A stretch of 64,000 nt of DNA. It comes from Lachnospiraceae bacterium. Lineage in GTDB: Bacteria > Bacillota > Clostridia > Lachnospirales > Lachnospiraceae. Under the pieces are notes generated by a model. It ran no database searches. It was given only the letters and a program-made list of their open reading frames with translations, and had not been told where the DNA came from. Position numbers and translations under genes: made by a program. Position 1 is the first letter of the stretch, and the number at the start of each line of letters is the position of its first letter. Shown here piece after piece: positions 1 to 14,421 of this stretch. The stretch spans positions 137 through 64,136 of the forward strand of contig DATESN010000071.1 of NCBI GenBank assembly GCA_035270785.1, read 5' to 3'.

Positions 1-1712
1 TGATCCTCGTTCCAGACTTTCAAACTCTTCCTTGTATTTAAACTTAAGAAACCAAGAATTCTGTCTTTACTTGCAACAGGGATGGCTATCATTGATTTAA
101 TATGCCACACCATCAACCCCTTACCTTCTACCTTGTCATTTATAAATTTTTCACTAATATTTGGTATATGAACAATTTCATTATTAAGAATTTGGGTTAC
201 TATAAATTGTTCAAGAATATTTGCACTATTTTCATGAATATCAAGGTCCATAATTTCACTATGATTCCATTGGTTTTTTTGCATAATTTCTTCCTTGTTT
301 TTCGCAATCACAGAAAGTGTGACGCAATCCACCTGGGAGCATTCTCCTATACATTCCAACATCTCATCTATTTTTTTATTTAAATTCGAGGCGGATGCAT
401 TCACAAATCCTGATGAAACATAGGAAATCATCTTTTGAAATTTAACTTGCGTTTCGGTTTCCGTTAATCTTTTAATATATATTTGATTTACAAAATAAGC
501 TAACCATAGTGTAATTAGCAAAATTCCAATCCTTGTTAGATGATCTGCTGAGCTAATAACTATTGTTCTTGTAGGGGCAAGAATCCACACAACAATTTGA
601 AGTATCAATATAAAGGTACTTGGCCAAATGAGCATTCCTTTTTTACTTGTTATTACTAATAGGAAAATAAAAATAAAAGAAACCGACCATACCGTAGTGC
701 TAGCTGAATCAATAAATTTAAATGTGATCATTGTCATGATAACCATCATGCAAAAGATAACAATGTAATCAATAAACTTTTCTTTTATCTTCAGTTGTAA
801 AATAAGTTGAATAAGGATTCCAACACCAAGCAGATAACTGCTAAATAATAAGGAAGGTTTCATTGGTTCATTTAATAGAAAAAACTGAATTGCAAAATTT
901 ATCATGCTTCCAAATACAAAAGAAATGGTTAAATTAAGATACAGTTTGCCTCGAGTAATTTCATCAAGTATCTTTCCGTCTTCTGCAACTGCCGCCTTCA
1001 TCTCAGGGAGCATCAACCTATATTTTCTAATGGCATAGAAAATACCCGTGATTGGTATTATTTGTAACGCTGGCGCCATTTGGGGAACGGCATCTACCAG
1101 ATAGATATTTGCGATCATATCCGTTAAGGTACCTATTGTCAGTGAACAAATAAAACAAACTATTAAAATTGAAGTTTGCTTTTTCATTTTTAAATCTTTT
1201 GATTGTAATCTGCAATGAATAAGAATAATAATTCCAGCAATGGTGAAACCCATATAATAAAAATTAAAATACCAATCTAAATAATTATTTACAGGTATAT
1301 TAGTCCACCCAGCAGTACTATGTATAAGATGATATTGACCAATTGCTACCTCTTTTATTATATTAAAAACAAAAATATTTATGATTGCAGGTAGATACAA
1401 AAATATGTAAATCCATTTTCTTTTTAATAGTCTATTTTTCTGTGTTAATATCAAAATAAAATGAAGTAAAAAACTGTATACCGTTCCCCAGCCAAAAGCG
1501 GCGATACGCCTCCATAGTAATGCCGTTTCATAATCCGGCGCAGAATTAGCTATGGAAAAAGAAAATGCCCAAATAGAAATGGAAAGACAACTAGCAAAGA
1601 AAATTCTATTGAGCATAGACCTTCCATTCAGCATCAGTATATAAACGCTAAAAAATACATAAATACTAAAGGCAATGAAATATATCATTGAAATTTGTTG
1701 GGGTAATGGCAT
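1..1712 (-). CDS. Membrane sensor protein with an N-terminal multi-TM (7TM-sensor-like) region followed by a GAF domain. Partial: the C-terminus lies beyond the window start
   Basis: Absent from the supplied ORF track because there is no stop inside the window. I translated the minus strand by hand from the ATG at 1712-1710 (SD AAGGAGAA about 7 nt upstream). It stays open for about 570 codons to position 1. The sequence starts MPLPQQISMIYFIAFSIYVFFSVYILMLNGRSMLNRIFFASCLSISIWAFSF and has about 9-10 hydrophobic spans. It then runs NSANILEQFIVTQILNNEIVHIPNISEKFINDKVEGKGLMVWHIKSMIAIPVASKDRILGFLSLNTRKSLKVWNEDQ, which is GAF-like. Confidence 0.75.
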   Translation of the reverse strand, partial: MPLPQQISMIYFIAFSIYVFFSVYILMLNGRSMLNRIFFASCLSISIWAFSFSIANSAPDYETALLWRRIAAFGWGTVYSFLLHFILILTQKNRLLKRKWIYIFLYLPAIINIFVFNIIKEVAIGQYHLIHSTAGWTNIPVNNYLDWYFNFYYMGFTIAGIIILIHCRLQSKDLKMKKQTSILIVCFICSLTIGTLTDMIANIYLVDAVPQMAPALQIIPITGIFYAIRKYRLMLPEMKAAVAEDGKILDEITRGKLYLNLTISFVFGSMINFAIQFFLLNEPMKPSLLFSSYLLGVGILIQLILQLKIKEKFIDYIVIFCMMVIMTMITFKFIDSASTTVWSVSFIFIFLLVITSKKGMLIWPSTFILILQIVVWILAPTRTIVISSADHLTRIGILLITLWLAYFVNQIYIKRLTETETQVKFQKMISYVSSGFVNASASNLNKKIDEMLECIGECSQVDCVTLSVIAKNKEEIMQKNQWNHSEIMDLDIHENSANILEQFIVTQILNNEIVHIPNISEKFINDKVEGKGLMVWHIKSMIAIPVASKDRILGFLSLNTRKSLKVWNED

Positions 1713-1806
1713 ATAGTTATTCTCCTTTGTAGGTTGATTTGATTCCTCTTGATGATTGAATTGTCTTGCCAAATTGTAGATATCTTTTATTTATTTCACT
1801 CATTTC

Positions 1807-2724
1807 TTAAGGAAGCTTATTTCCAGCAGCAATATATATTTGATACCATTCTTCACGGGTAAGATATAACTCCGATGCCAAACATATTTCGGTTAAACGA
1901 TTTGGATTCATTGTTCCAACAACTGGCTGCATATTAGCTGGATGTCTTAAGATCCAAGCAGTTGCAATGGTTGTATTCGAAACACTATATTTTTCTGCTA
2001 TTTGATTTATTTTTTTATTTAATTCTGGAAACTTTTCATTGTTCAAAAATACTCCTTCAAAGAAGCCATACTGAAATGGTGACCATGGTTGTATGGTAAT
2101 ATCATTTAATCGGCAGAAATCCAAAATACTTCCATCGCGATCAACTGCATTATCGGTCATCATATTTACTTCCAAACCATTTCCAATCATATGTGTATTG
2201 GTAATACTAAATTGAAGTTGATTTGCAACAAGGGGTTGTCTTACACACTTTTGCAATAATTGAATTTGCATAGGTTTCTGATTTGATACACCAAAATGGC
2301 GAACCTTGCCCGATTTTTCTAATTCATCAAAGGCAGACGCAACTTCTTCTGGTTCTACTAATGCGTCTGGTCTATGAAGTAATAAAACATCAAGATATTC
2401 CGTTTGTAGTCTTTTTAAAATACCATCAACAGAGTTTAAAATGTGTTTCTTAGAAAAATCAAACATTCCTGGCCTTATACCGCATTTTGATTGAAGAATT
2501 ATCTTGTCCCTTACATCGCTAGACATATGAATAGCATCCGCAAATATCTTTTCACATTCACTAGCTCCGTAAATATCTGCATGGTCAAAAAAGTTTGCCC
2601 CTAACTCTAGTGCTTTTTGAACAAATTCTTCTGCTTTTTTATGATCAATATCGTTAATCCGCATACATCCTACAGCAATATTGGGTACTTGAAGATTACT
2701 TTTACCTAGTTCTATTTTTTTCAT
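1807..2724 (-). CDS. Aldo/keto reductase family oxidoreductase
   Basis: 305 aa ORF with AKR-like motifs GANFFDHADIYG and LLLHRPD. SD AGGAGGAA precedes the ATG. Confidence 0.85.
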   Translation of the reverse strand: MKKIELGKSNLQVPNIAVGCMRINDIDHKKAEEFVQKALELGANFFDHADIYGASECEKIFADAIHMSSDVRDKIILQSKCGIRPGMFDFSKKHILNSVDGILKRLQTEYLDVLLLHRPDALVEPEEVASAFDELEKSGKVRHFGVSNQKPMQIQLLQKCVRQPLVANQLQFSITNTHMIGNGLEVNMMTDNAVDRDGSILDFCRLNDITIQPWSPFQYGFFEGVFLNNEKFPELNKKINQIAEKYSVSNTTIATAWILRHPANMQPVVGTMNPNRLTEICLASELYLTREEWYQIYIAAGNKLP

Positions 2725-2866
2725 TTCATTTCCTCCTGTTAACTTTTGGTAGAATCGATTGTTTATTACCTTTTCTCTATTGTTACCAATCTATAGTAAT
2801 TAATTATAACAAAATTAACAGGGTTATGAAACATAAAATGAATAAAAAACATATCTTTTTATACCA

Positions 2867-3610
2867 TTATCCAAGGATTGCAACATATTGAAGAAATAAT
2901 TGAAACGATGTTTGATCCCACATTAAAACATTTTGTACATACCCCAGAGCATCTGCATTATATCTTCCCGCAATCTTTTGAAATGCAAATAGCTCATATA
3001 CTCCGTTTGAATCAATGTCTACTGGGTATAAAGCACTTAATGGATTCATAAACCCGGTAATTGGGGCTTTAAGTTTTCCATCTTTATCATATATTTCATT
3101 TAAATAATCCGTATCTCTCAACGATAGATCGATGATATAATTTGCACTATTTGCATCACTAATTACTTCAACCTTATAATTATCCTTATAAGTAATATTA
3201 TATTGGAATATGTCATTATATTTATCTGAATCAAATAACATTTTAGGTATATTTTGCACAAATGAGTAAAGATAATCATATGTGATTGCCCCACTACCAC
3301 CAGAATCTATGCGAATTAATATATCCTCTACTTTATCTCCATTAAAATCTCCCAGAAATAATGTAGGATTATACCCTGCATTATTATTTAGCTTAACACT
3401 TTCACTTCTACCTGTCCTTCCATCCTGTATGACTAGAGTAATGTTTTGTATAAATGGAGAATCCGTTGATTTCCTCCCTACCAAATATACATTATCAATC
3501 ACACCATCCCCAGTTACATCACCTTGTGCAAATGAAGCAATAAAATAGTTGGCTTGATTTATATTCGCATTTGTATTTGTATTTGTATTTGTATTTGTAT
3601 TTGTATTCAT
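2867..3610 (-). CDS. FG-GAP/VCBS-repeat-like protein with an N-terminal (Thr-Asn)n tract; function unknown
   Basis: 247 aa. Three Ca-binding-loop-like repeats: GDVTGDGVIDNVYL, GDFNGDKVEDILI and DIDSNGVYELF. No signal peptide is evident. SD GAGGAA lies upstream of the ATG. Confidence 0.6.
   Translation of the reverse strand: MNTNTNTNTNTNTNANINQANYFIASFAQGDVTGDGVIDNVYLVGRKSTDSPFIQNITLVIQDGRTGRSESVKLNNNAGYNPTLFLGDFNGDKVEDILIRIDSGGSGAITYDYLYSFVQNIPKMLFDSDKYNDIFQYNITYKDNYKVEVISDANSANYIIDLSLRDTDYLNEIYDKDGKLKAPITGFMNPLSALYPVDIDSNGVYELFAFQKIAGRYNADALGYVQNVLMWDQTSFQLFLQYVAILG
3569..3604. repeat. Perfect hexanucleotide microsatellite, (ATTTGT)6 on plus = (ACAAAT)6 on the coding strand
   Basis: Six perfect tandem 6-nt units were read directly. 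They lie at codons 2-14 of the 2867..3610 gene and encode NTNTNTNTNTNT. Confidence 0.95.
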
Positions 3611-3725
3611 TTTATTTCCTCTGAAATTTATGATCCTGTTGCTGTATCATATTCTGAGCACGAGATATTTGCTATTCATTTGATGCAATGTAGGTTGTTT
3701 TTTAAACATCTCAAGTGAAATCATT

Positions 3726-3757
3726 AAAAAAGGATTACTCTTTTTGGAATAATCCTT
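3726..3757 (-). terminator. Candidate rho-independent terminator
   Basis: 8-bp stem AAGGATTA/TAATCCTT with a 12-nt loop, followed on the minus strand by a T-run. Confidence 0.4.
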
Positions 3758-3817
3758 TACTTAATATTTTATTATTATTCTGCCTGTATCAATTAACTAT
3801 ATTCTCGGCATGAAAAT

Positions 3818-3838
3818 AAGCCTTGAAATTCAAGGCTT
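3818..3838 (-). terminator. Candidate terminator hairpin downstream of the DprA-like gene
   Basis: Near-perfect palindrome AAGCCTTGAA-A-TTCAAGGCTT. A T-rich tract (TATTTTCAT) follows on the minus strand. Confidence 0.45.
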
Positions 3839-3977
3839 TGAAAGATTACAACAAATTTGTTACATAACTTACACTGTTTTTTTTCAATAACTTAAGTGTA
3901 GAATATTAATAGTGGCTGAACCCCTAATATATATGTATAAAACAATATTTTATCTAAATCAAAAATATGTCTAATTA

Positions 3978-4928
3978 TCACAAATCAAAAATAGTCATTT
4001 GTTTGTTGTTAACATAGTTCCAATTCTCAATTAACGCCGGATCTTTTAATGATTTTATCTGATTTATCGAATCTGATTGCAAAATTTTAACTTTATTTAT
4101 ACTTATATGATCAGCCAGATCTTTATTTAATCCAAACCTCTTATTATTCTCATCTGTTTTAGAATTATACATAACATATCTTTCAATTTCATATTTTCTG
4201 GCTGCCTCCATTGCGTGACGTGATCCGCTATCTCCTTCGTCCTTCCTATAACTAGCCACTAACACTATTGCTTTTGCGAACATTGCCTGTAATCTGTCTC
4301 TCTCAATAAATCGATTAATTGCTTCACTTCTTGATGAAGAATCTCTGTAGTATTCCGATAATAGCAATCCTCCTTTATTTACTATTTCTTCAGCCAGCTT
4401 ACGATTTTTTGCTGGATAAACTTTACTTATTTGTGACGGTAGAATTGCAATTGTTTTACCATTCAATTCCAAAGAGGATTTATGTGCAATCGTATCGCAG
4501 CCCAATGCCAATCCACTAACTATTATTATATCATTCTCTACGAGTCTCTTTACCACATCCGCTTCTCTTTTAACTATTTCCTCTTCTGGGTCGACCAGTC
4601 CAATAACTGCTACATTTTTGTTTAAATCACTTAGTAATGACAAATCACCTTTATAAAATAATAAATAGGGTTTATCACTATTATTTTTTACTTTGTAGTT
4701 AAGAACTGGAAACTCTTTATCATAAACACATATGATTCCTTCTTCACTTTCATATGAATTAAATTCGTTAGATATCCTTGTTAAAGTCTTAGTAAAAATA
4801 TTATCTTCTAATATTCTCTCTTCAAATATCACCTTATTTTCAAAGTTTACCCAAAATTGAGCATTAGATTTAATAATCCCACATTCTTTTGCTGCTAAAA
4901 CTTTTAATGCTATTTCTGAATATTTCAT
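3978..4928 (-). CDS. DprA/Smf-like (SLOG/Rossmann) protein, a diverged paralog; candidate ShosA-like component
   Basis: 316 aa. DprA hallmark blocks are present: LLFYKGDLSLLSDLNKNVAVIG, IIVSGLALGCDTIAHKSSLELNGKTIAILPSQISKVYPAKNRKLAEEIVNKGGLLLSEY and RFIERDRLQAMFAKAIVLVAS...DSGSRHAMEAARKY. The SD AAGGAGGG sits inside the end of the upstream gene. The ATG shares one base with the upstream TAA (TAATG at 4926-4930). Confidence 0.75.
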   Translation of the reverse strand: MKYSEIALKVLAAKECGIIKSNAQFWVNFENKVIFEERILEDNIFTKTLTRISNEFNSYESEEGIICVYDKEFPVLNYKVKNNSDKPYLLFYKGDLSLLSDLNKNVAVIGLVDPEEEIVKREADVVKRLVENDIIIVSGLALGCDTIAHKSSLELNGKTIAILPSQISKVYPAKNRKLAEEIVNKGGLLLSEYYRDSSSRSEAINRFIERDRLQAMFAKAIVLVASYRKDEGDSGSRHAMEAARKYEIERYVMYNSKTDENNKRFGLNKDLADHISINKVKILQSDSINQIKSLKDPALIENWNYVNNKQMTIFDL

Positions 4929-5545
4929 TAGACCCTCCTTGTGTACCCAATTGAATAAAAAATAACACTCCTTGCTCCATTATTTAATAGTGCCTGGATG
5001 CAGTCTTCATCAATATTTACATTCTTTGTATATATATCATCAACAAGTATAATATTTTGATTCATTAATTTGTTTCTATATATTTCACAGGTGGCAACTG
5101 CGATTCCTGGATATGGGGCGTCACCATCATTAGGAATATTAGCTGCAGTTCGCAAATGGGTAGTTTTAGTGTTTTCTACTCTTCTAATTAATTCTGTTCC
5201 ATCAACAGCTCCGCGAATATTATTAGCTGCAATACTAATTGCTTCTTTCAACATTTGCTGTGTAGCAACATATGTATTCAATGCCCTTGCCCTTGGGACG
5301 CAAACGCATAAACAATTTGTTATATTGTTTTCACTCATAATTTGGGGAATATCTTGCATTAAAATATCTATGACATCTTCTCTTGCACCTATTAAAACAC
5401 TTTGTTTCTCCGTGTCAAAAGTGTTTTTTAAAATATTTAGAAAATCCGGATTATTTGGTTGTCTAAACCCTGTATAATATTGGTGAAAATACCCGGTAAT
5501 TCTTTCACTTAGAAAAAGATTTGGAACAATTTTAAAACTTTCCAT
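4928..5545 (-). CDS. Phosphoribosyltransferase-fold (ComF-like) protein with a degenerate PRPP loop; candidate ShosT-like component
   Basis: 205 aa. The C-terminal block NIILVDDIYTKNVNIDEDCIQALLNNGARSVIFYSIGYT matches the PRTase signature (hydrophobic-VDD-x-x-TTG-x-T), but with KN in place of TG. The central block CLCVCVPRARALN is ComF-like. There is no N-terminal 4-Cys finger. A strong SD GGGGGAGG lies 8 nt upstream of the ATG. Confidence 0.65.
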   Translation of the reverse strand: MESFKIVPNLFLSERITGYFHQYYTGFRQPNNPDFLNILKNTFDTEKQSVLIGAREDVIDILMQDIPQIMSENNITNCLCVCVPRARALNTYVATQQMLKEAISIAANNIRGAVDGTELIRRVENTKTTHLRTAANIPNDGDAPYPGIAVATCEIYRNKLMNQNIILVDDIYTKNVNIDEDCIQALLNNGARSVIFYSIGYTRRV

Positions 5546-5717
5546 CTTGATTTTCCTCCCCCTTGCTATCCGAGTTGTCTTGCCAATTGGAACACATTTT
5601 TGTATGCTCTAATTCCTCACTAGCAAGATTCTCTTTTTTGTTATTGTTACCATTCAATAAGTCGTTTTGAGTGCTCATTTTTATCAGCCCTTTCTTCTTA
5701 TTGAATTTAATTTGTTG

Positions 5718-6097
5718 CTAACTTACCTGCTTCCTCAAATTCTTATATCGCTTTTTTGTATCCGATACCGAATAATCAGCAAGTCCTTTTAATACAAACG
5801 TAATCTTATATGGATCTGATATTCCATCTTTATTTATTTCGCCAATAATTACTTTCTTTACAACACTCTCAAATACAGAACGATCGAATTTATCCAATAT
5901 CTTAACTTCTGAAATTCGTGATCTTAATTCTTTCATTCTCTTGCCGATATCTTTCTTTGCATCAACATTTGATGTTAGAATCTTTTATTCCTGCCTAACA
6001 TGATTGATTTTCTGTGTATACTCTTCATATCTCTCATCATAAGCCTCTTTTAAGATTTTACAATCAAGTAACATATCGGTCAATTTCTTTCGCTTTG
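5718..6097 (-). pseudogene. C-terminal remnant of a large serine recombinase, interrupted by an in-frame TAA
   Basis: The reading frame gives ...[105 protein letters not shown].... This is a coiled-coil plus C-terminal tail typical of clostridial large serine recombinases. The catalytic N-terminal domain is missing. The stop at 5985-5987 is in frame. Confidence 0.55.
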
Positions 6098-6435
6098 CTT
6101 CCATTGCTGCAACGGCACCTGTGATTGATGCTGATGACGAAGAGATTGCACAGGCCATTTCTGTTGTTTTTTTATTCAATGTTATTGATGCTATCATTTT
6201 CCCCACATTAGGATCTATGCTTGGTCTTTCTAATTTTGGCTTTGGTCTATTTGCTGGCACTGCTATAAATGATACTTCTTCTGTTACTGCAGCAGCCTCA
6301 ACCTGGGATACATTACACGGAACAAATGGAATGGTATTAGAATATGCAACCATTGTAAAACTAACCCGAACCTTGGCCATTATTCCGATTACTTTAGTTC
6401 TCTCATTTCTTCGAATTCGAAATGAAAAGAAATAA
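6094..6435 (+). pseudogene. Internal fragment of a YeiH/UPF0324-family membrane protein
   Basis: The sequence [67 protein letters not shown]...[16 protein letters not shown] matches the conserved core of YeiH-type proteins. Only about 110 aa are present, flanked by unrelated fragments on the opposite strand. Confidence 0.6.
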
Positions 6436-7205
6436 ATATTATCTTTTTGAAACTTATATTTTCATACCAATCGTTGAATTCCTCTATGGTATCTGCTTGA
6501 AAAAATTTATAATATTTAAACACATCAGCCGTACTCATGAAAATCTCAGAATAAAATACTGCAATTACTTCATATTCTCGTTTTTCTTATAAACTATCAA
6601 AACAAATGATTGCATGATTTGCCTCATAGTTTTGATCTGCGTACTTCTTTAATCCTTCAAACATGAAACTGGATTTCATGGTATGACCATGAATAATCAA
6701 ATTTGTGGATGGTGGCGTAGCACCAATTTCTGTATAATTATATTCTTGTAGGCCATTTCCTACATCTGAATCTGTAACTAATATTAAATTACAATTGCTA
6801 TTTTGCTCTTTATTAAAATCAAATGACAGATAATAATCTTCCTCACCCAGTGTCTGCATAACTGGATAATCTATTACGGTATCTTCAATTTTAAGCCACC
6901 CTACTAAATCCGAATTTTGTTCATAAAAAGATTCATATTCTGGTAATATTTTTACTGTTAGCAACAATGAAATATCTGTCTTGTCATTTTTTTTTATATT
7001 TTCTATTTTTTTTTTTGCTGTATCAAATCCAACTGTTTTTTCATTTTACTATGATTAATCCCTTTTTAAATAAATACTACTTATTAAAATGCTCAAAATA
7101 AAACAAATTCCTACTAGGATTTCAAACAACAAATGCTTGAAAAAAGTTGTCTTTCGACACCCCTTTAATTTATTTTTTTTATCGTTCTTAAATTTTTGAA
7201 TCTTT
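6436..7205 (-). pseudogene. Class B sortase pseudogene
   Basis: One frame reads as follows. First a TM anchor, FFKHLLFEILVGICFILSILISSIYLKRD, followed by TAA-TCA-TAG-TAA. Then ...NSDLVGWLKIEDTVIDYPVMQTLGEEDYYLSFDF...IIHGHTMKSSFMFEGLKKY...ICFDSL, followed by TAA. Then EKREYEVIAVFYSEIF...EEFNDWYENISF. I found no start codon and no TLxTC catalytic-Cys segment. The fragment ends against the YeiH fragment. Confidence 0.65.
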
Positions 7206-7214
7206 TTTATCTCA

Positions 7215-8348
7215 TTACATTTCAATGGTTGTCCCTTCCGGTATGTTTTCTATCAACCAATACAAATCGTCCTGTGAAACTCTAACGCAACCAGATGTAT
7301 GCTCATCATGCAATGATATAGATTCTTTTTCTCGAAAATCATCAGCATTGGCATCCATCAAATATATGTCACTATGAATAAAATAATCTTCAAATACAAC
7401 AAGATATCCATAGAATTTTACCTGTTCAAAGTCAGGATGATATGTACTAATATATTCAGTTGACGACACTTTTTCTATGTTAAAAATTCCTGCCGGAGTC
7501 AGTGTCTTTCCATCACCGCCGAATATGCAAGGCATACTCCTTGCAAACTCATACATAACATAATCAGATGCATCAAAGTCTTTTCTGATTGGATAATTAT
7601 CCCAAAGTACTTTTGTATCCGTTTTTTCATAAATTTCCAAGCAACTAGATTTTCTGTTAAGCTTAAGATAGTATCGATTATCTATTCTTTTATTGAGAAT
7701 TCTACTTGCAACTATATACATTCCCTTTATTATTATTTCAACTTTTATTCTACAGCTCTCAAGACATTTATTCCATTCAGCTATTCCTTCTTTATGTCCT
7801 TTTTTCTTGTAATTGATGGCTTCATTATATACTTCTTCTACATAACCACCAGTTATAATATTATCATCTTGAGCTACTTCAATTAACCACAGCCACAATT
7901 CTGGACATGTAATTGATCTATTAAAAATATTAGCAGTAGGTTTGCTTTTCCCTTTTCGCATATCTTCTAGTTCATATTGAGCGCAATATGATACAAGAAA
8001 ATGCCATTTTTGATTTGGTTCTCCAACCGATTTATCATCTTTAACACAACATATAAAGCTCTCATCAAGTTCTTCAAGAGAATAAACCTTACCTAACTTG
8101 CCTTGCTCTATCAATTTTCTCATTTCGATAATATTTTCCAGATGCCCATCTTTTTTCTTCTTAATTACGTCTTCAAGTTCTTCAATAGATTTGTCGTTGG
8201 TTAATATAAATTTATTAGCGAATACAATATAACCTCCTTCTTCTTGCCGGTATTTACTCATAAACTCTTTTGTATAAGGGGGAGTTGGTTCTTTCTTTTT
8301 ATAGAAATTAATTGCCTTAATCGTTAAAGTATCAAATTTCTTGTACAA
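7215..8348 (-). CDS. Protein with an unknown N-terminal domain (about 210 aa) and a C-terminal YkuD-type L,D-transpeptidase domain; no signal peptide or TM
   Basis: 377 aa with a TTG start and SD GGAGG. The C-terminal region carries GKTLTPAGIFNIEKV...YFIHSD...HTSGCVRVSQDDLYWLIENIPEGTTIEM, which matches the YkuD His/Cys catalytic pattern (SHGCIR-like). Confidence 0.65.
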   Translation of the reverse strand: MYKKFDTLTIKAINFYKKKEPTPPYTKEFMSKYRQEEGGYIVFANKFILTNDKSIEELEDVIKKKKDGHLENIIEMRKLIEQGKLGKVYSLEELDESFICCVKDDKSVGEPNQKWHFLVSYCAQYELEDMRKGKSKPTANIFNRSITCPELWLWLIEVAQDDNIITGGYVEEVYNEAINYKKKGHKEGIAEWNKCLESCRIKVEIIIKGMYIVASRILNKRIDNRYYLKLNRKSSCLEIYEKTDTKVLWDNYPIRKDFDASDYVMYEFARSMPCIFGGDGKTLTPAGIFNIEKVSSTEYISTYHPDFEQVKFYGYLVVFEDYFIHSDIYLMDANADDFREKESISLHDEHTSGCVRVSQDDLYWLIENIPEGTTIEM

Positions 8349-8412
8349 TTTAAAACCTCCATAATAATATTTTTACTCACCTTTTATTTAGACATCAGCA
8401 AATATTTATTAA

Positions 8413-9687
8413 TCACACATCGCCTTTACATTTTTTCTTTGCCAAAAGCGTTCTGCTTATAAACGCTCCAAAAACCAAGACACCTGCTATCGAGGCTACA
8501 AAACTTATGAGCATTTCAACTCTGCCGGTAGATACATAATCTACAATTTGCAGAATGGAACCGATAATAGAAGTAAGTCCAAATATAGCAATAATCATTC
8601 CTATAGTGCTTTCTCTCTTTGAATCAATTCTCTCTTGTTCTTCATTGAGTAGATTTATTTTTTCTTTTATCTCCATAATAGTTTCATTTATACCATTTAG
8701 CTCTATAAGTAGGCGATATGTATCACATACATTATTCCAACGGGATATCTGCGACGGGACAAGAGTCCCATATGCTATAAATTTCATTGCCTTTCTCTTT
8801 AAATCCTGAATGCTTTTCTTTAGCATTGCAGACGGATTATTTGATATGTATCTTTGATGTATTTCCTCATTTAATAGCATACATGTATATTTCTGATACA
8901 TTACAAGCATGGTAATTAACAAATCATCGTTAGCGTTTTCTACAAGTGGGGCTTTTCCTTTTGAATAAGCATAAGATATTTCCTGGGATGTAATTGAGCA
9001 TCCCCAGCCATAGTCCTTAGAATCTACATCTCTTGCTCCAGTAACATACTCAACATCTTTTTCCGATAAATCTTCGAAATCACGAGATAAGTTAATAATT
9101 CTATGCTCGTTATAAGTTATCTTGTTTATGATGTCAGTCTCTTTAAATCTATTTGGAACATATGCGACATTAAGTCTATAGGCCTCTTTCAAGATAAAGC
9201 TCTGTGATTTTATATCTGTAATAAACCATCGCATTTGGGGCTTTAACTGGCTCAAAATCTTGTCGCTTATATTTTTCAAGAATAAGGCCTGGATGTTTTT
9301 TAATTCTTCATTCTCATCTGTATATCCTGGATATATAAATTTATATATCGACCCAACATTTCCATTATAATAGGATAAATACGCAGAGAGAAATGCTATA
9401 CCATTATCAAATACAAATAATTGCAAATCAGTAATAGATATTTCCGTATCTAATTGAATCGGATCCAGTTTAACGTCTAATTTATAGCGCCGAACAAAAT
9501 TCCCATCCATACTACACTTATTAGCCAATAATTCAATGAAATCACTCGACTCAAATGGAATGGGTTTGCTTTCCATAATTGACATATCTTTAAATTTAAT
9601 TTTTACATCATACTTGAGCGGTAAAATGACAAACATTCCCCGCTCAATATAATATTTATTCTCGATATGTTTCCAGTATTTTTCCAT
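8413..9687 (-). CDS. CorA-like-architecture membrane protein with a soluble N-terminal domain, a coiled coil and 2 C-terminal TM helices; lacks the GMN motif
   Basis: 424 aa. The C-terminus reads EIKEKINLLNEEQERIDSKRESTIGMIIAIFGLTSIIGSILQIVDYVSTGRVEMLISFVASIAGVLVFGAFISRTLLAKKKCKGDV. That gives two hydrophobic helices, a short loop and a basic tail. No GMN motif is present in the loop. Confidence 0.5.
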   Translation of the reverse strand: MEKYWKHIENKYYIERGMFVILPLKYDVKIKFKDMSIMESKPIPFESSDFIELLANKCSMDGNFVRRYKLDVKLDPIQLDTEISITDLQLFVFDNGIAFLSAYLSYYNGNVGSIYKFIYPGYTDENEELKNIQALFLKNISDKILSQLKPQMRWFITDIKSQSFILKEAYRLNVAYVPNRFKETDIINKITYNEHRIINLSRDFEDLSEKDVEYVTGARDVDSKDYGWGCSITSQEISYAYSKGKAPLVENANDDLLITMLVMYQKYTCMLLNEEIHQRYISNNPSAMLKKSIQDLKRKAMKFIAYGTLVPSQISRWNNVCDTYRLLIELNGINETIMEIKEKINLLNEEQERIDSKRESTIGMIIAIFGLTSIIGSILQIVDYVSTGRVEMLISFVASIAGVLVFGAFISRTLLAKKKCKGDV

Positions 9688-9855
9688 TCACTTATGACCT
9701 CTCTAAAACATTTTAACTTATTATTTGACTCCCACATCTCAACCAACAAATACTTCACATGACTGTCTACACCCTTAAACCCATACTTTTTCACTTAGTC
9801 TAACACTTCTAAATCTCCTCAAAGCCGATAAATACTGGGGTTTTAAAGGCATTTT

Positions 9856-10761
9856 CTACAGTTCATATGGCGTCACTTGATAAACATAATAATTCAACCA
9901 ATTGGTATACAAAATATTACTATGTGCTCTCCATGTAAGATTTGGCTTTACGCTTGGATCGTCACCTTTAAAATAGTTTTTTGGAACATCTACGGATAAG
10001 CCTTTTTCAATATCCCTTGTATATTCATTGTTAAGGGTTATGCGATCATACTCAGGATGCCCCATTACAAAAACATGTCTACCTTCATGAGAAAGAGCTA
10101 GGAACACACCTGCTTCTTCCGATTCGGCTAATACGGTAACTTCTTTGCAGTTATGTAAATCTTCTGCTGATACGGTTGTGTGGCGGCTATGAGGTGCAAA
10201 AAATACATCGTCAAAACCACGCACCAGTGGGATCTTACGATTTGCTACTGTATGTTCGTACAATCCAAATATTTTTTCTGATAAGGCTTTCTTTTGTATT
10301 CCAAAATAATGGTAAAAGGCAGCTTGTGCCCCCCAGCATATATGCAATGTTGAAGTAACATGATCTTTGGTCCAATCCATAATCTCACAAAGTTCATCCC
10401 AATAATCCACCTTTTCAAACTCCATTTGTTCAACAGGTGCTCCCGTAATGATAAATCCATCAAAATATAGATCCTTCACTTCTTCGAAGGTTGTATAAAA
10501 CTTATTTAAATGATTCGCCGATGTATTTAATGACACATGGGATTTCACATTGATGAAGCTAATATCCACTTGCAATGGTGTATTCGAAAGCGCCCTTAAA
10601 AGCTGTAATTCTGTATCTTGCTTAATTGGCATCAAATTCAAGATTCCTACTCGAAGTGGGCGAATATCTTGATGCATAGCTCTATTTTCATCCATGACAA
10701 ATATATTTTCATATTCTAATATTTCCTTTGCAGGCAAATCTCCATTTACTCTTATTGGCAT
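9856..10761 (-). CDS. metA: Homoserine O-acyltransferase (MetA family)
   Basis: The protein starts MPIRVNGDLPAKEILEYENIFVMDENRAMHQDIRPLRVGILNLMP, a classic MetA N-terminus. I prefer the ATG at 10761 (SD AGGTGA) over the GTG at 10782 given in the track. Confidence 0.9.
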   Translation of the reverse strand: MPIRVNGDLPAKEILEYENIFVMDENRAMHQDIRPLRVGILNLMPIKQDTELQLLRALSNTPLQVDISFINVKSHVSLNTSANHLNKFYTTFEEVKDLYFDGFIITGAPVEQMEFEKVDYWDELCEIMDWTKDHVTSTLHICWGAQAAFYHYFGIQKKALSEKIFGLYEHTVANRKIPLVRGFDDVFFAPHSRHTTVSAEDLHNCKEVTVLAESEEAGVFLALSHEGRHVFVMGHPEYDRITLNNEYTRDIEKGLSVDVPKNYFKGDDPSVKPNLTWRAHSNILYTNWLNYYVYQVTPYEL

Positions 10762-10785
10762 ACTATCACCTAGCTTTCTCACTTT

Positions 10786-10890
10786 TTATTCCATATTTCT
10801 TTATTCCCTATTTTTTTATTCCCTAATTCTTTATTCCCTATTTCTTTATTCCCTATTTCTTTATTCCCTATTTCTATATTCAATATAATT
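10786..10890. repeat. Tandem 15-bp repeat, about 7 copies (TTATTCCCTATTTCT on plus, AGAAATAGGGAATAA on the gene strand)
   Basis: Units read at 10786, 10801, 10816, 10831, 10846, 10861 and 10876. Three consecutive copies are perfect and the outer ones are degenerate. The array fills most of the ligA-metA spacer. Confidence 0.95.
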
Positions 10891-10921
10891 TATCATCTCT
10901 AAAAATCATGAAATAATACTA

Positions 10922-12898
10922 TCACACATTACTTGGCATATCAATGTTATATTCCTTTATAAAATCCCCCTCTGTTAAAATGGGAATCCCTAATTCCTTG
11001 GCTTTTTTGTTTTTAGATGAATTTGATGCGATATCATTATTAATTAGATAATTCGTTTTATTGGTAACACTACCGGTTACTTTTCCGCCTAGTTTTTCAA
11101 TCATTTCTTTTAATTCATTACGACTTGAAAAGTTTTCTAGACTTCCTGTTATCACAAACGTTTTATTTAGAAGAATTTGATCCTTTTCATCTATTTGTTC
11201 CACTTCTATTACTAATTCTTTTATAAGATTATCAAGAATAATCTTATTTTTATCATTCCCAAAAAAATCTTTGATGGAACCTGCTATTACTTCTCCAATG
11301 CCATCAATTCTACTTAATGTTTCTATAGAAGCTTGTAATATGTTTTCTAAATCATAACTACATTCTTTACATAGCATCTTTGCATTGGCAATACCAATAT
11401 TTGCGATTCCAAGACTATAGATAACTTTTGGCAACGTCGTTTTTCTAGACTTTTCAATACTATTAATAAGGTTTTTATAGGATAATGTTCCAAACCCTGC
11501 CATCGTTTCTATTTTATTTTGATAACGATCTAAATGATAAATATCAGCATATTCAAGGATAAAACCCTTTCCAATTAATTTTTCCAACGTAGCTTCTGAA
11601 AGTCCTTCAATATTCATTCCATCCCTACTAACAAACAAGGAGAAAGATTTTATCTTTTTTACTTCACAATCAGGATTTATACAGTACAATGATTGAACAT
11701 CATTGGTTTGCTTTACTTGTGTGATTCCACCACATACGGGACATTGGCAAGGAATCTCTATACTGTTACTTTTTGTAAGGTTTTCTGCTATTTGAGGAAT
11801 AATCATATTCGCTTTATATACTGTTATTCGATCTCCGATGCCTAGTTTCAGTGCTCTCATAATACTTATGTTATGAACGGAAGCTCGACTTACTGTTGTT
11901 CCTTCTAATTCTACTGGATCAAATATGGCCACTGGATTAATTAAGCCGGTTCGGCTTGGGCTCCACTCAATTTCCTTTAAAAAAGTCTCTTTCAACTCAT
12001 CTTCCCATTTAAATGCAATGGAATCTCTTGGGAATTTTGCTGTTGTGCCTAATGACTTTCCATAAGCAATATCATTTAATGCTAATACCAATCCATCTGA
12101 TGGAATGTCAAATGTTGCTATCTTTACTTGAAACTGTTCTATCGTTTCAAGTAAATTTTCTTTATTTACCTTTTTATATTCTACCACATCAAAACCAAGC
12201 TCTTTTAAAAATTGAAATTGACTTTCTTTAGACTCCATATCGTCTATTTCATCTGCTTTCACTAGTGAAAATGCAAAGAATTGTACATTACGATTTGCTG
12301 CAACTTCATTATTTAACTGCCTAACGGATCCGCTGCAGAGGTTCCTTGGATTCTTATATTTTGCATCAACATCTTCTATTTTTTCATTAATCTTATTAAA
12401 TTCTGTATACGTAATGATAGCCTCTCCACGCAAAATTAATTCCCCTTGATACTTGATTTTGAGCGGAATATTTTTAAATACCCTGGCATTGTTCGTAATT
12501 ACTTCTCCTATTTCACCATTACCTCGCGTCACTGCTTTTGCAAGTTTTCCTTCCATATAGGTTAGAACGATCGTAAGTCCATCTAATTTCCATGAAAGAA
12601 TTCCTTCATTGTCTTGTATCCAATTTATTAAATCCCCTCTGTCCTTTGTTTTTCCCAAGGAAAGCATTGGTTTCTCATGAGCTTCTTTTGGAAGGTTATC
12701 CATCACCTCATATCCAACTTGTACCGTTGGCGAATTTGCTGCAACCATACCCGTTTCTTCTTCTAAGGCAACTAACTCATCATATAATTTATCGTACTCG
12801 AAATTGCTCATAATCTCGCTGTCATCTAGATAATAAGCTTTTGAAGCCTGTGTTAATATTTGAATTAACTCTTTAATTCTAATTATTTTTCGTTCCAT
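10922..12898 (-). CDS. ligA: NAD-dependent DNA ligase
   Basis: 665 aa ORF with a C-terminal BRCT region and a CPVCG zinc finger (CQCPVCGG). The layout follows the ligase order of adenylation, OB, Zn, HhH and BRCT domains. The likely start is the ATG at 12898 (MERKIIRIKEL), while the track starts at the TTG at 12919. Confidence 0.9.
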   Translation of the reverse strand: MERKIIRIKELIQILTQASKAYYLDDSEIMSNFEYDKLYDELVALEEETGMVAANSPTVQVGYEVMDNLPKEAHEKPMLSLGKTKDRGDLINWIQDNEGILSWKLDGLTIVLTYMEGKLAKAVTRGNGEIGEVITNNARVFKNIPLKIKYQGELILRGEAIITYTEFNKINEKIEDVDAKYKNPRNLCSGSVRQLNNEVAANRNVQFFAFSLVKADEIDDMESKESQFQFLKELGFDVVEYKKVNKENLLETIEQFQVKIATFDIPSDGLVLALNDIAYGKSLGTTAKFPRDSIAFKWEDELKETFLKEIEWSPSRTGLINPVAIFDPVELEGTTVSRASVHNISIMRALKLGIGDRITVYKANMIIPQIAENLTKSNSIEIPCQCPVCGGITQVKQTNDVQSLYCINPDCEVKKIKSFSLFVSRDGMNIEGLSEATLEKLIGKGFILEYADIYHLDRYQNKIETMAGFGTLSYKNLINSIEKSRKTTLPKVIYSLGIANIGIANAKMLCKECSYDLENILQASIETLSRIDGIGEVIAGSIKDFFGNDKNKIILDNLIKELVIEVEQIDEKDQILLNKTFVITGSLENFSSRNELKEMIEKLGGKVTGSVTNKTNYLINNDIASNSSKNKKAKELGIPILTEGDFIKEYNIDMPSNV

Positions 12899-12927
12899 GA
12901 AGGGTATCATCCTAATCAATTTATTTT

Positions 12928-13650
12928 CTATATCTTTAATCCTACTGACTCATAGAGAGTTTCTATTTCCTTACCAGCTAATTCTCTATATTCACCCGAT
13001 TGCAATGTTCCAATTTCTATATTCATGATTCTTATTCTTTGCAATAACTTCACCTCATATCCAAGAGTTTTGCACATTCTACGAATTTGTCGGTTTAGCC
13101 CTTGGGTCAATATAATGCGAAAAGAAAACTTACCAACACTTGTTACTTGGCATTCTCGTGTAGTCTCTTCTAAGTCTTTTAGATAAACACCTTTGCTCAT
13201 TTGGGCTAAAAAATGGGGCGTTATTTCCTTATCCACTTTTACTAAATATTCCTTTTCATGCTTATTCGCAGCACGCATCATTCGATTAATAAGTTCCCCA
13301 TCGTTAGTCATAATGATAAGACCTTCTGAATCTTTATCCAGCCTACCCGCATAGGTTATTCTAATGGGATAATTCAAGTAATCAGTGATTGTTTGATCCG
13401 CGTATTTGTCTTTTTCTGTACAAGTAACACCTACTGGTTTATAAAAAGCTAGGACTACTTTACTATTTTTATTCTCAACTATCTTTCCATTGAAACTAAC
13501 GGAATCTGTTTCTTGCACTTGATACCCCATAGTCGCCGTAATTCCATTTACAAGAACACGTCCCGCATCAATCATCTTATCAGCCTCACGCCTTGAACAT
13601 ATTCCACAATCAGCCAAATATTTATTTAATCTAACCATATTTTTACTCAT
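12928..13650 (-). CDS. rluF: RsuA/RluF-family rRNA pseudouridine synthase with an S4 domain
   Basis: S4 N-terminus (VRLNKYLADCGICSRREADKMI), catalytic GRLDKDSEGL, and HEKEYLVKV...QGLNRQIRRMC...RIRIMN as in RluF. Confidence 0.8.
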   Translation of the reverse strand: MSKNMVRLNKYLADCGICSRREADKMIDAGRVLVNGITATMGYQVQETDSVSFNGKIVENKNSKVVLAFYKPVGVTCTEKDKYADQTITDYLNYPIRITYAGRLDKDSEGLIIMTNDGELINRMMRAANKHEKEYLVKVDKEITPHFLAQMSKGVYLKDLEETTRECQVTSVGKFSFRIILTQGLNRQIRRMCKTLGYEVKLLQRIRIMNIEIGTLQSGEYRELAGKEIETLYESVGLKI

Positions 13651-13778
13651 AATTTTTATCCATTTCTATTCATTTATAAATAATGTTTCTTATTATTGTA
13701 ATCTATTATAGGTGTTTTGTCGAGGCTGCCAAAGGGTTTGAAAATAGATAAAATAAAACAACAATAATTTACTAATCG

Positions 13779-13807
13779 TAGTAAAAGGGTATTTAAAGTG
13801 TTATAAT
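13779..13807 (+). promoter_or_regulatory. Candidate sigma-A promoter of xpt with an extended -10
   Basis: TGTTATAAT (TGnTATAAT) at 13799-13807, with a weak -35 TAGTAA 17 bp upstream. It lies about 40 nt upstream of the xpt start. Confidence 0.4.
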
Positions 13808-13848
13808 GATATTGGTTTTATAAAAATAATCTAACGAGGTGATGTGTA

Positions 13849-14421
13849 TTGAAATTACTTAAGGACAAGATATTATCAGAAGGAAAAGTAGTAAATGAAC
13901 ATATTTTAAAAGTAGATAGTTTTATTAATCATCAGGTAGATCCAGTTCTTATGGACGCTGTAGCCAAAGAATTTGCTGAACACTTCAAAAATAAGGGCAT
14001 TACTAAAATTGCCACTATTGAAAGTTCTGGGATTGCTCCAGCCCTCTTCACTGCAAAGGAAATGGGACTTCCACTTATTATTTTTAAAAAACAACCCTCT
14101 CAAATCTTGTATCACAATTTATATCAGACAATGATTGAATCTTATACCAAAGAAACTTCTTACGAATTGACTTTATCTAAGGATTATATCTGTTCTGATG
14201 ATCATGTACTTATTATTGATGATTTTCTTGCCAATGGTGAAGCAGCTTCTGGTGCCATTCGATTAATTAGAATGTCATACGCTACTGTTGCAGGACTTGG
14301 TGTATTGATTGAGAAGTCATTTGAACCAGGACATGATAAAGTGGCCGGAAATGGGATCGAAGTATATTCACTTGCACGTATTAAAAAGTTAGATCATGAT
14401 TCTATTGAATTTTTGGATTAA
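13849..14421 (+). CDS. xpt: Xanthine phosphoribosyltransferase
   Basis: The protein starts MKLLKDKILSEGKVVNEHILKVDSFINHQVDP and carries the PRTase loop VLIIDDFLANGEA. TTG start with SD GAGGTGA. Confidence 0.9.
   Translation: MKLLKDKILSEGKVVNEHILKVDSFINHQVDPVLMDAVAKEFAEHFKNKGITKIATIESSGIAPALFTAKEMGLPLIIFKKQPSQILYHNLYQTMIESYTKETSYELTLSKDYICSDDHVLIIDDFLANGEAASGAIRLIRMSYATVAGLGVLIEKSFEPGHDKVAGNGIEVYSLARIKKLDHDSIEFLD

Follow-up and report, generated by a model that had tools for sequence, protein, structure and literature searches.

A probable ShosTA-type toxin–antitoxin pair from a split-toxin subfamily, reduced by deletion of its HAD hydrolase gene, in a Lachnospiraceae genome

When a gene for a phosphoribosyltransferase (PRTase)-like protein and a gene for a DprA-like protein overlap on one strand, the question arises whether they serve natural transformation, nucleotide metabolism or a toxin–antitoxin system, and, in the last case, whether that system is still complete. 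Such a pair, here termed T and A, lies in a Lachnospiraceae genome (contig DATESN010000071.1 of assembly GCA_035270785.1), within a stretch of 64,000 nucleotides (nt) that was analyzed at its full length and is called the window below. An initial annotation, made from the sequence alone, had read the pair as a ShosTA-like module and not as competence genes. This reading is borne out by the agreement of the PADLOC models for ShosA and ShosT, profile–profile alignment with hhalign and structural comparison with Foldseek, and by the conservation of the pair across loci. The T–A pair is probably a reduced copy of a ShosTA-type toxin–antitoxin or abortive-infection module, drawn from a widespread subfamily in which the toxin is split between genes. 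The two genes and their translation signals are as follows.

4928 to 5545, minus strand: T, 205 residues, a standalone PRTase-fold protein that is distantly homologous to the toxin (PRTase) domain of ShosT.
3978 to 4928, minus strand: A, 316 residues, a ShosA-type DprA-like protein and predicted antitoxin.
5555 to 5562, minus strand: Shine–Dalgarno sequence of T, GGGGGAGG, read from the sequence, 9 nt 5ʹ of the ATG of T.
4933 to 4940, minus strand: Shine–Dalgarno sequence of A, AAGGAGGG, read from the sequence (plus strand ccctcctt), within the final codons of T.

The junction reads TAATG on the minus strand (plus-strand positions 4926-4930, cat ta), the TAA of T and the ATG of A sharing one base, and the AAGGAGGG that serves A is made by the Arg-Arg-Val codons at the 3ʹ end of T. 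Both the overlap and the ribosome-binding sequence inside the end of T, which the initial annotation had pointed out, can be read directly from the letters. G-rich ribosome-binding sites precede T in relatives too, and T/A junctions overlap or abut there as well.

A is clearly a ShosA-type DprA-like protein. Its DprA-like character, already recognized in the initial annotation, is evident from Pfam (DNA_processg_A, E-value [E] 1.3e-40). The PADLOC ShosA model PDLC03961 matches residues 36-277 with E 2.9e-53, a second ShosA model matches with 7.5e-23 and the PsyrA model with 9.1e-21, and the PADLOC ShosA models fit A more strongly than dprA models do. NCBI labels the protein "DNA-processing protein DprA", yet its score against the NCBIfam dprA equivalog TIGR00732 (129.9 bits) falls under the cut-off of 191.15. 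By sequence, the nearest solved relatives of A are E. coli ShosA (8zva/9vzo; 4e-18) and Streptococcus pneumoniae DprA. The AlphaFold2 model, with a mean predicted local distance difference test (pLDDT) score of 85, comprises a four-helix N-terminal domain, a Rossmann core and a tail (residues 303-316) with pLDDT below 50, and the structure that Foldseek ranks first for it is E. coli ShosA 8zva (E 9.3e-17, 323 columns). In ShosA itself, a SAM domain and a Rossmann domain are followed by a C-terminal loop that is disordered, and the C-terminus mediates instability (PMC11961720); the domain layout of A, as modeled, mirrors this arrangement.

T is more divergent. It has no match in Pfam. The two peptide motifs quoted in the initial annotation, NIILVDDIYTKNVNI and GARSVIFYSIGYT, are both present. 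Its AlphaFold2 model is of high quality (pLDDT 91.4), and a Foldseek search of the PDB with this model returned type-I PRTases only (PyrR, Helicobacter pylori ComF, PurF, HGPRT and ShosT 8zvd/8zvc), which upholds the earlier proposal of a PRTase fold. The top query-normalised TM-score, 0.53, belongs to ShosT 8zvd, with H. pylori ComF lower. For comparison by profile, the 424-residue E. coli ShosT from the P2-like phage hotspot was taken and a family alignment built from it; hhalign placed residues 38-205 of T on residues 188-368 of ShosT with 92.8% probability (E 3.9e-7, 155 columns). Within this alignment, D169 and D170 of T, which are invariant in two alignments of 36 sequences each, fall on ShosT D331 and D332, and R122 and T173 fall on R274 and T335. 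Replacement of ShosT D331/D332 by alanine abolishes toxicity (PMC11961720, PMC12961424). The profile–profile alignment, the fold and the aligned aspartate pair together show T to be remotely homologous to the toxin domain of ShosT. Moreover, the PADLOC ShosT model PDLC03962 is matched by all 36 diverse T-family members examined (best 1.3e-13), and 7 of the 36 also show a weak PsyrT match.

Two further features of T had been singled out from the sequence. The replacement of the TG dipeptide by KN in the phosphoribosyl pyrophosphate (PRPP) loop is a fair description, but the loop of ShosT is itself non-canonical at the same place (DDFCTEGN). The lack of the four-cysteine finger of ComFC is confirmed: no CxxC motif occurs in the sequence of T, so that the ComFC zinc finger is absent, and the match of T to the NCBIfam comF model TIGR00201, over the last 40 residues, is marginal (E 0.01, 15.8 bits; cut-off 233.55). 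The N-terminal 37 residues of T carry a family-specific motif, NPDFLNxLKNTF.

The T family is large, with more than 500 clusters at 90% identity in a word-indexed search and 435 at 50% identity in an exhaustive search. Its members are mostly about 205 residues long and mostly unnamed or called "hypothetical protein", few being termed phosphoribosyltransferase. When one genome per species was scanned, relatives were found in 218 of 185,579 species, with family hosts among the Firmicutes, Negativicutes, Fusobacteria, Bacteroidota, Proteobacteria, Cyanobacteria, Chloroflexi, Spirochaetes and Planctomycetota and in one Methanosarcinales archaeon. The distribution of the pair is thus accessory and patchy. 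No T homologue was found in a phage collection and a single one was plasmid-borne (Synechocystis PCC 6714 plasmid pSYLB), so the family is not typically carried by phages or plasmids. T is accompanied by A in nearly all loci: of the 80 that were fetched, from many phyla, 79 have an A homologue 3ʹ of T in the same orientation, the two genes usually overlapping (often by 1 or 4 nt) or lying a few base pairs apart, and the lone exception is a contig that ends 193 nt past T.

Most of these loci contain a third gene, for a HAD-family hydrolase. In a hidden Markov model census of 84 loci, the HAD gene was present in 62, preceding the pair in 33 (HAD-T-A) and following it in 29 (T-A-HAD), and 22 loci showed T and A only. 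Among the latter, about eight, in addition to the window, have ample flanks, and these represent about eight other lineages. RefSeq places the HAD gene upstream of T on pSYLB, whereas T-A-HAD is the order in the nearest Firmicutes, Veillonella and Fusobacterium relatives of the window, where the HAD start overlaps the stop of A. The separate HAD protein is about 170-200 residues long, has motif I as FDLDNTL or FDMDGTL followed by WTSA/LVTN and YEDN/FENE motifs, and keeps its DxDxT phosphatase motif intact. PADLOC gave no match for the separate HAD proteins, and a search of the PDB with the HAD profile returned HAD-IA phosphatases (3kbb, 3e-11) and sugar- or nucleotide-phosphate phosphatases, including xanthosine monophosphate (XMP) phosphatase, not pyrophosphatases.

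The association of a HAD enzyme with a PRTase is also that of ShosT. Residues 1-164 of ShosT form a pyrophosphatase-like hydrolase domain (PMC11961720), and in relatives of canonical ShosT Pfam recognizes both HAD_2/Hydrolase and Pribosyltran. HAD–T fusion proteins of about 400 residues (P0413, P0433, P0373 and P0483) occur within the T family itself. Since canonical ShosT is a HAD–PRTase fusion, the most fitting name for a family with separate HAD and PRTase genes is a "split ShosT" subfamily within the ShosTA/PsyrTA-type systems, in which the HAD gene presumably corresponds to the ShosT N-terminal domain.

In the window, the HAD gene is deleted. What is left of it lies directly 3ʹ of A.

3923 to 3981, minus strand: HAD remnant, the first ~19 codons, located by six-frame translation, by tblastn with the third-gene proteins of relatives and by DNA alignment to the closest relative (locus L085).

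In L085, whose T and A are 79% and 82% identical to those of the window, an intact HAD_2 gene of 171 residues overlaps the stop of A. Identity between the two loci is continuous through the end of A and extends over the remnant (49 of 59 nt identical) before it is lost, which, with the intact gene at the same position in L085, identifies the change as a deletion in the window. The remnant has also decayed: its start has changed from ATG to GTG, overlapping the stop of A as GTGA, and motif I has changed from DLDNTL to DLDKIL. The minus strand 3ʹ of A reads GTG-ATA-ATT-AGA-CAT-ATT-TTT-GAT-TTA-GAT-AAA-ATA-TTG-TTT-TAT-ACA, translated VIIRHIFDLDKILFYT; the frame ends after 29 codons at a stop at 3892, homology having been lost at about 3923. 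An exact-sequence look-up of T retrieved the same arrangement, deletion included, from two other short metagenome contigs belonging to two other samples.

T and A themselves are intact and keep all family-invariant residues. Against L085, the ratio of nonsynonymous to synonymous substitution rates is 0.34 for T and 0.18 for A, which indicates purifying selection on both. The earlier description of T as a compact single-domain PRTase variant therefore needs qualification. In the T subfamily, the HAD half of ShosT is encoded by a gene of its own, which accounts for the compactness of the protein, but the locus is not a pristine two-gene design; its HAD gene has been deleted and the module is reduced.

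The closest known system is ShosTA (E. coli APEC O1/P2-like prophage hotspot; PDB 8zva, 8zvb-d, 9vzo, 9w2p). Both systems have a DprA-like antitoxin, in which a SAM-like N-terminal domain precedes a Rossmann domain and the C-terminal tail is disordered, and a non-canonical PRTase toxin that has a conserved aspartate pair in its PRPP loop. In both, the genes for toxin and antitoxin adjoin each other in the same orientation, and the PRTase is associated with a hydrolase of the HAD family (for the present pair, in relatives of the window). Some relatives also lie next to other defence genes. However, ShosT is a single protein of 424 residues (HAD-type 1-164 and PRTase 165-424), whereas T is a PRTase of 205 residues only, the HAD part being a gene of its own in relatives and deleted in the window. 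T is, moreover, too divergent from ShosT for Pfam or PDB sequence searches and has its own N-terminal NPDFLNxLKNTF motif, and the window host is a low-GC Lachnospiraceae metagenome-assembled genome (MAG).

PsyrTA/RqlHI likewise pairs a DprA-like antitoxin with a toxin whose toxicity depends on a PRTase domain. In PsyrT/RqlH, a RecQ-like helicase lies N-terminal to the PRTase and the protein binds its antitoxin directly; some T relatives are fused to a large helicase (L001, L003), an analogous architecture, or preceded by one (L002), but the window module has no helicase in or next to T. With ComFC and DprA the pair shares the PRTase fold of T and, in A, a DprA fold with its single-stranded DNA (ssDNA)/RecA-mediator scaffold, and differs from them in the missing zinc finger, scores far under the NCBIfam cut-offs for both proteins, the absence of a competence context, the accessory distribution and the HAD linkage. 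A PRTase-fold protein is the probable cell-killing effector in other anti-phage systems (Millman 2022 preprint); unlike those systems, the present one has no reverse transcriptase or msr/msd RNA, and its partner is DprA-like. No description of a split toxin with a permuted gene order was found in the papers on ShosTA and PsyrTA/RqlHI that were consulted. The pair belongs to a known kind of system, but to a subfamily with a split toxin and a permuted gene order.

How such a pair might act can be drawn from its homology with the ShosTA system of E. coli (PMC11961720, PMC12961424). Through the loop with its aspartate pair, T would bind PRPP, and it would then move the phosphoribosyl group to an acceptor, disturbing purine nucleotide metabolism and thereby causing DNA damage. 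A would bind ssDNA and promote RecA-dependent recombinational repair, and would in this way neutralize T indirectly, as in a type IV toxin–antitoxin system. The disordered C-terminal tail of A may, like the destabilizing tail of E. coli ShosA, make the protein short-lived. When a phage shuts off host expression, or when ssDNA floods the cell, A would no longer suffice and the cell would be killed or arrested by T, which would give the pair a role in defence. In the ancestral three-gene form, the HAD hydrolase may drive the reaction by removing pyrophosphate or by dephosphorylating the product. Since the HAD gene is deleted, T in the window would be expected to act unaided, and probably more weakly. 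In E. coli ShosT, mutation of the pyrophosphatase site (R56A) reduces toxicity only marginally (PMC11961720), so the loss of the HAD partner probably weakens T without abolishing its activity. A caveat to this scheme comes from RqlH, the isolated PRTase domain of which is not toxic alone (PMC4670107).

Several observations weigh against a ShosTA-type module. Neither T nor its family profile found anything meaningful in the PDB by sequence, ShosT included, and the match of T itself to the PADLOC ShosT model is weak (E 3.2e-5, 21.9 bits, residues 35-203); the homology accordingly rests on the profile–profile and fold evidence. T precedes A, whereas in the E. coli shosA-shosT operon A comes first. 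The hhalign match of the HAD family to the ShosT N-terminal domain is collinear but weak (E 0.019, probability 2.4%) and does not demonstrate homology by sequence, so that the designation "split ShosT" rests on shared Pfam HAD membership and on the HAD–T fusions. A promoter scan 5ʹ of T gave sites no better than those in shuffled sequence, and PADLOC recognized no defence gene among the window genes neighbouring T and A. Finally, the window copy is a reduced two-gene derivative, without its HAD partner, and it sits amid gene fragments, one of which lies just upstream.

5721 to 6105, minus strand: recombinase C-terminal fragment with one internal stop, a joined frame of 128 residues outside the module.

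The initial annotation had spoken of recombinase debris here, and correctly so: the joined frame matches a "recombinase family protein" of an Anaerococcus prevotii conjugative plasmid (32.5% identity, E 2e-8, 97% coverage) and marks a decayed mobile element directly upstream of T.

The main alternative is that the locus is a decaying remnant of a former three-gene system, in which T and A, unexpressed or unneeded since the loss of the HAD gene, are becoming pseudogenes. This possibility, which we consider unlikely, is favored by the chance-level promoter scan, the lack of defence neighbours within the window, the truncation of the HAD gene to ~19 codons, in which the start is mutated and motif I has decayed, and the recombinase fragment with its internal stop, around which other short open reading frames look like gene pieces. 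Yet both T and A are full length with every family-invariant residue kept, and the identical sequence with its deletion was assembled from two other samples. HAD-less T–A pairs with ample flanks in about eight other lineages indicate that the two-gene form persists in nature. Furthermore, the HAD/pyrophosphatase half is nearly dispensable for the toxicity of E. coli ShosT (PMC11961720), and loss of the antitoxin would be lethal if the toxin were active, which would tend to preserve the pair.

It is highly improbable that the genes instead form a nucleotide-metabolism or DNA-repair operon, in which the PRTase and the HAD enzyme together produce a modified nucleoside or nucleotide that the DprA/SLOG-like protein binds or uses, or in which this protein loads RecA. 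The separate HAD protein, with its intact DxDxT motif and a profile that fits sugar- and nucleotide-phosphate phosphatases better than pyrophosphatases, would suit such a role, as would the near absence of T from plasmids and its absence from the phage genomes searched; even in E. coli, the acceptor used by ShosT is unknown (PMC12961424). However, the family is patchily spread across phyla in few species, and genes other than the HAD gene are not conserved as neighbours. Among 122 neighbours in about 40 loci (about half, those with clustered flanks), no other flanking gene was conserved. Known defence genes adjoin relatives, namely Csm3/Cas7, AriA, type II/III methyltransferases, PDC-S02 and mad2, listed without a background rate, and the homologous ShosTA and PsyrTA/RqlHI systems show toxin–antitoxin and anti-phage behaviour (PMC11961720, PMC12961424, PMC4670107, PMC9122126). 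A ComFC–DprA pair for natural transformation is hardly credible: the NCBI label of A, the H. pylori ComF fold match and the marginal comF match of T favor it, but it was rejected on the NCBIfam family thresholds, T lacks the CxxC zinc-finger motifs, A fits ShosA models better than dprA models, and the genes linked to this rare, patchy family are a HAD gene and, in some cases, helicases, and not those of competence.

For the ShosTA-type module favored here, a broader proposition may be considered, although it is distinctly unlikely. ShosTA-type systems might be not simple pairs of a toxin and an unstable antitoxin but a pathway of three activities, namely a PRTase, a HAD phosphatase and a DprA-like ssDNA/RecA mediator. 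The varied fusions of the parts (HAD–T, T–A and helicase–T) point in this direction, as does the HAD enzyme with its intact DxDxT motif, which may, beyond hydrolyzing pyrophosphate, convert the PRTase product by dephosphorylation into a nucleoside that is toxic or acts as a signal. T and A are also found joined in a single chain of about 490-546 residues (L029:2484-4112, L040:5995-7632, P0371 and P0369), in metagenomes and in MAGs of Leptospira and WOR-3, and such fusions fit poorly with a simple model in which the toxin is stable and the antitoxin unstable. If there were such a pathway, these fusions would mean that "toxin" and "antitoxin" act in cis on one substrate, for example a phosphoribosylated DNA base, and the copy in the window, which naturally lacks HAD, would provide a test of the part played by the hydrolase.

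The mechanism of ShosTA is partly understood, the role of the hydrolase domain being debated and the trigger disputed. Loci in which the PRTase, HAD and DprA-like parts are separate, occur in two orders, are fused in various ways or lack the HAD part are natural dissection experiments for each component. Current annotation misses such loci, as T is called "hypothetical" without a Pfam domain, A is mislabeled as competence DprA and the HAD protein has no defence model. The message of the window itself is more modest: the Lachnospiraceae genome, of a gut or anaerobic bacterium, has a ShosTA-like pair that is reduced and possibly attenuated.

Other architectures were seen among the relatives. SF1/UvrD-like helicase–T fusions of about 1,250 residues, followed by A and the HAD gene, occur in an Evtepia MAG (L001:2860-6612) and a Christensenellales MAG (L003:1684-5346), and Fusibacter (L002) encodes the homologous helicase separately, 5ʹ of T. 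The helicase was considered as a conserved fourth gene and dismissed, its L002 type being restricted to L001-L003. T carries a C-terminal HTH_40 domain at L044:709-1620 and L070:1629-2567, and the 622-residue protein P0357 is composed of a cold-shock domain, Sel1 repeats and T. In a Veillonella locus (L033), the HAD gene lies between two DprA-like A genes (6641-7453 and 8245-9165), an arrangement that points to a duplication or to systems in tandem. The pSYLB copy (L084), in the order HAD-T-A, adjoins genes for an "Abi family protein" and an Rpn-family nuclease, a defence-island-like context. On the E. coli plasmid p1585m1_B (L083; NZ_CP086388.1 44412-48706), a DprA-like gene is followed by one for a "HAD-IA family hydrolase" of more than 1,100 residues. 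This large protein consists of an N-terminal region, a ShosT-like PRTase segment (PADLOC ShosT 9.5e-8, residues 254-358), a restriction-enzyme-like segment and a DpdF/PsyrT-type helicase, and L083 is a large PsyrTA-like relative.

Downstream of A, a possible end of the transcript was located.

3818 to 3838, minus strand: terminator-like hairpin, AAGCCTTGAATTTCAAGGCTT, with a T-rich tail after it, some 140 nt 3ʹ of A.

The hairpin is the sole such site in 3600-6100, but shuffled sequence also yields one, so that it is weak evidence. At the other end of the pair, an open reading frame of 48 codons at 5532..5678 (minus strand), which has an RBS-like (ribosome-binding site) sequence and overlaps the start of T by 14 nt, was considered as a third component and rejected. 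No counterpart lies 5ʹ of T in any relative, and the frame is therefore probably spurious or lineage-specific.

No second DprA or T homologue is encoded in the 64-kb window, the guanine–cytosine (GC) profile of which shows no compositional island, and Rfam found nothing in positions 1-14000. A run of short open reading frames resembling gene fragments extends over 5985-6967. Among them are a membrane-protein-like piece of 104 residues on the plus strand (6121..6435) and a piece of 126 residues on the minus strand (6587..6967), neither of which has a Pfam or PADLOC match; we take the former to resemble a YeiH-type protein and the latter a sortase B N-terminus. Farther on, 8413-9687 (minus strand) encodes a protein of 424 residues with unassigned function and a hydrophobic C-terminal stretch, with marginal PADLOC matches to CorA-like (0.0016) and NsnC (0.0067) models.

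Two tandem repeats also lie in this part of the window. At 3557-3607, 8.5 copies of the hexanucleotide ATTTGT (plus strand) encode an (Asn-Thr)n run at the N-terminus of an FG-GAP-repeat protein (2867..3610, minus strand), a possible slipped-strand, length-variable region. At 10785-10881, a 15-nt unit, TTTATTCCCTATTTC, to which Rfam assigned no family, is repeated 6.5 times with 92% matches, directly 5ʹ of the homoserine O-succinyltransferase (HTS family) gene at 9856..10782.

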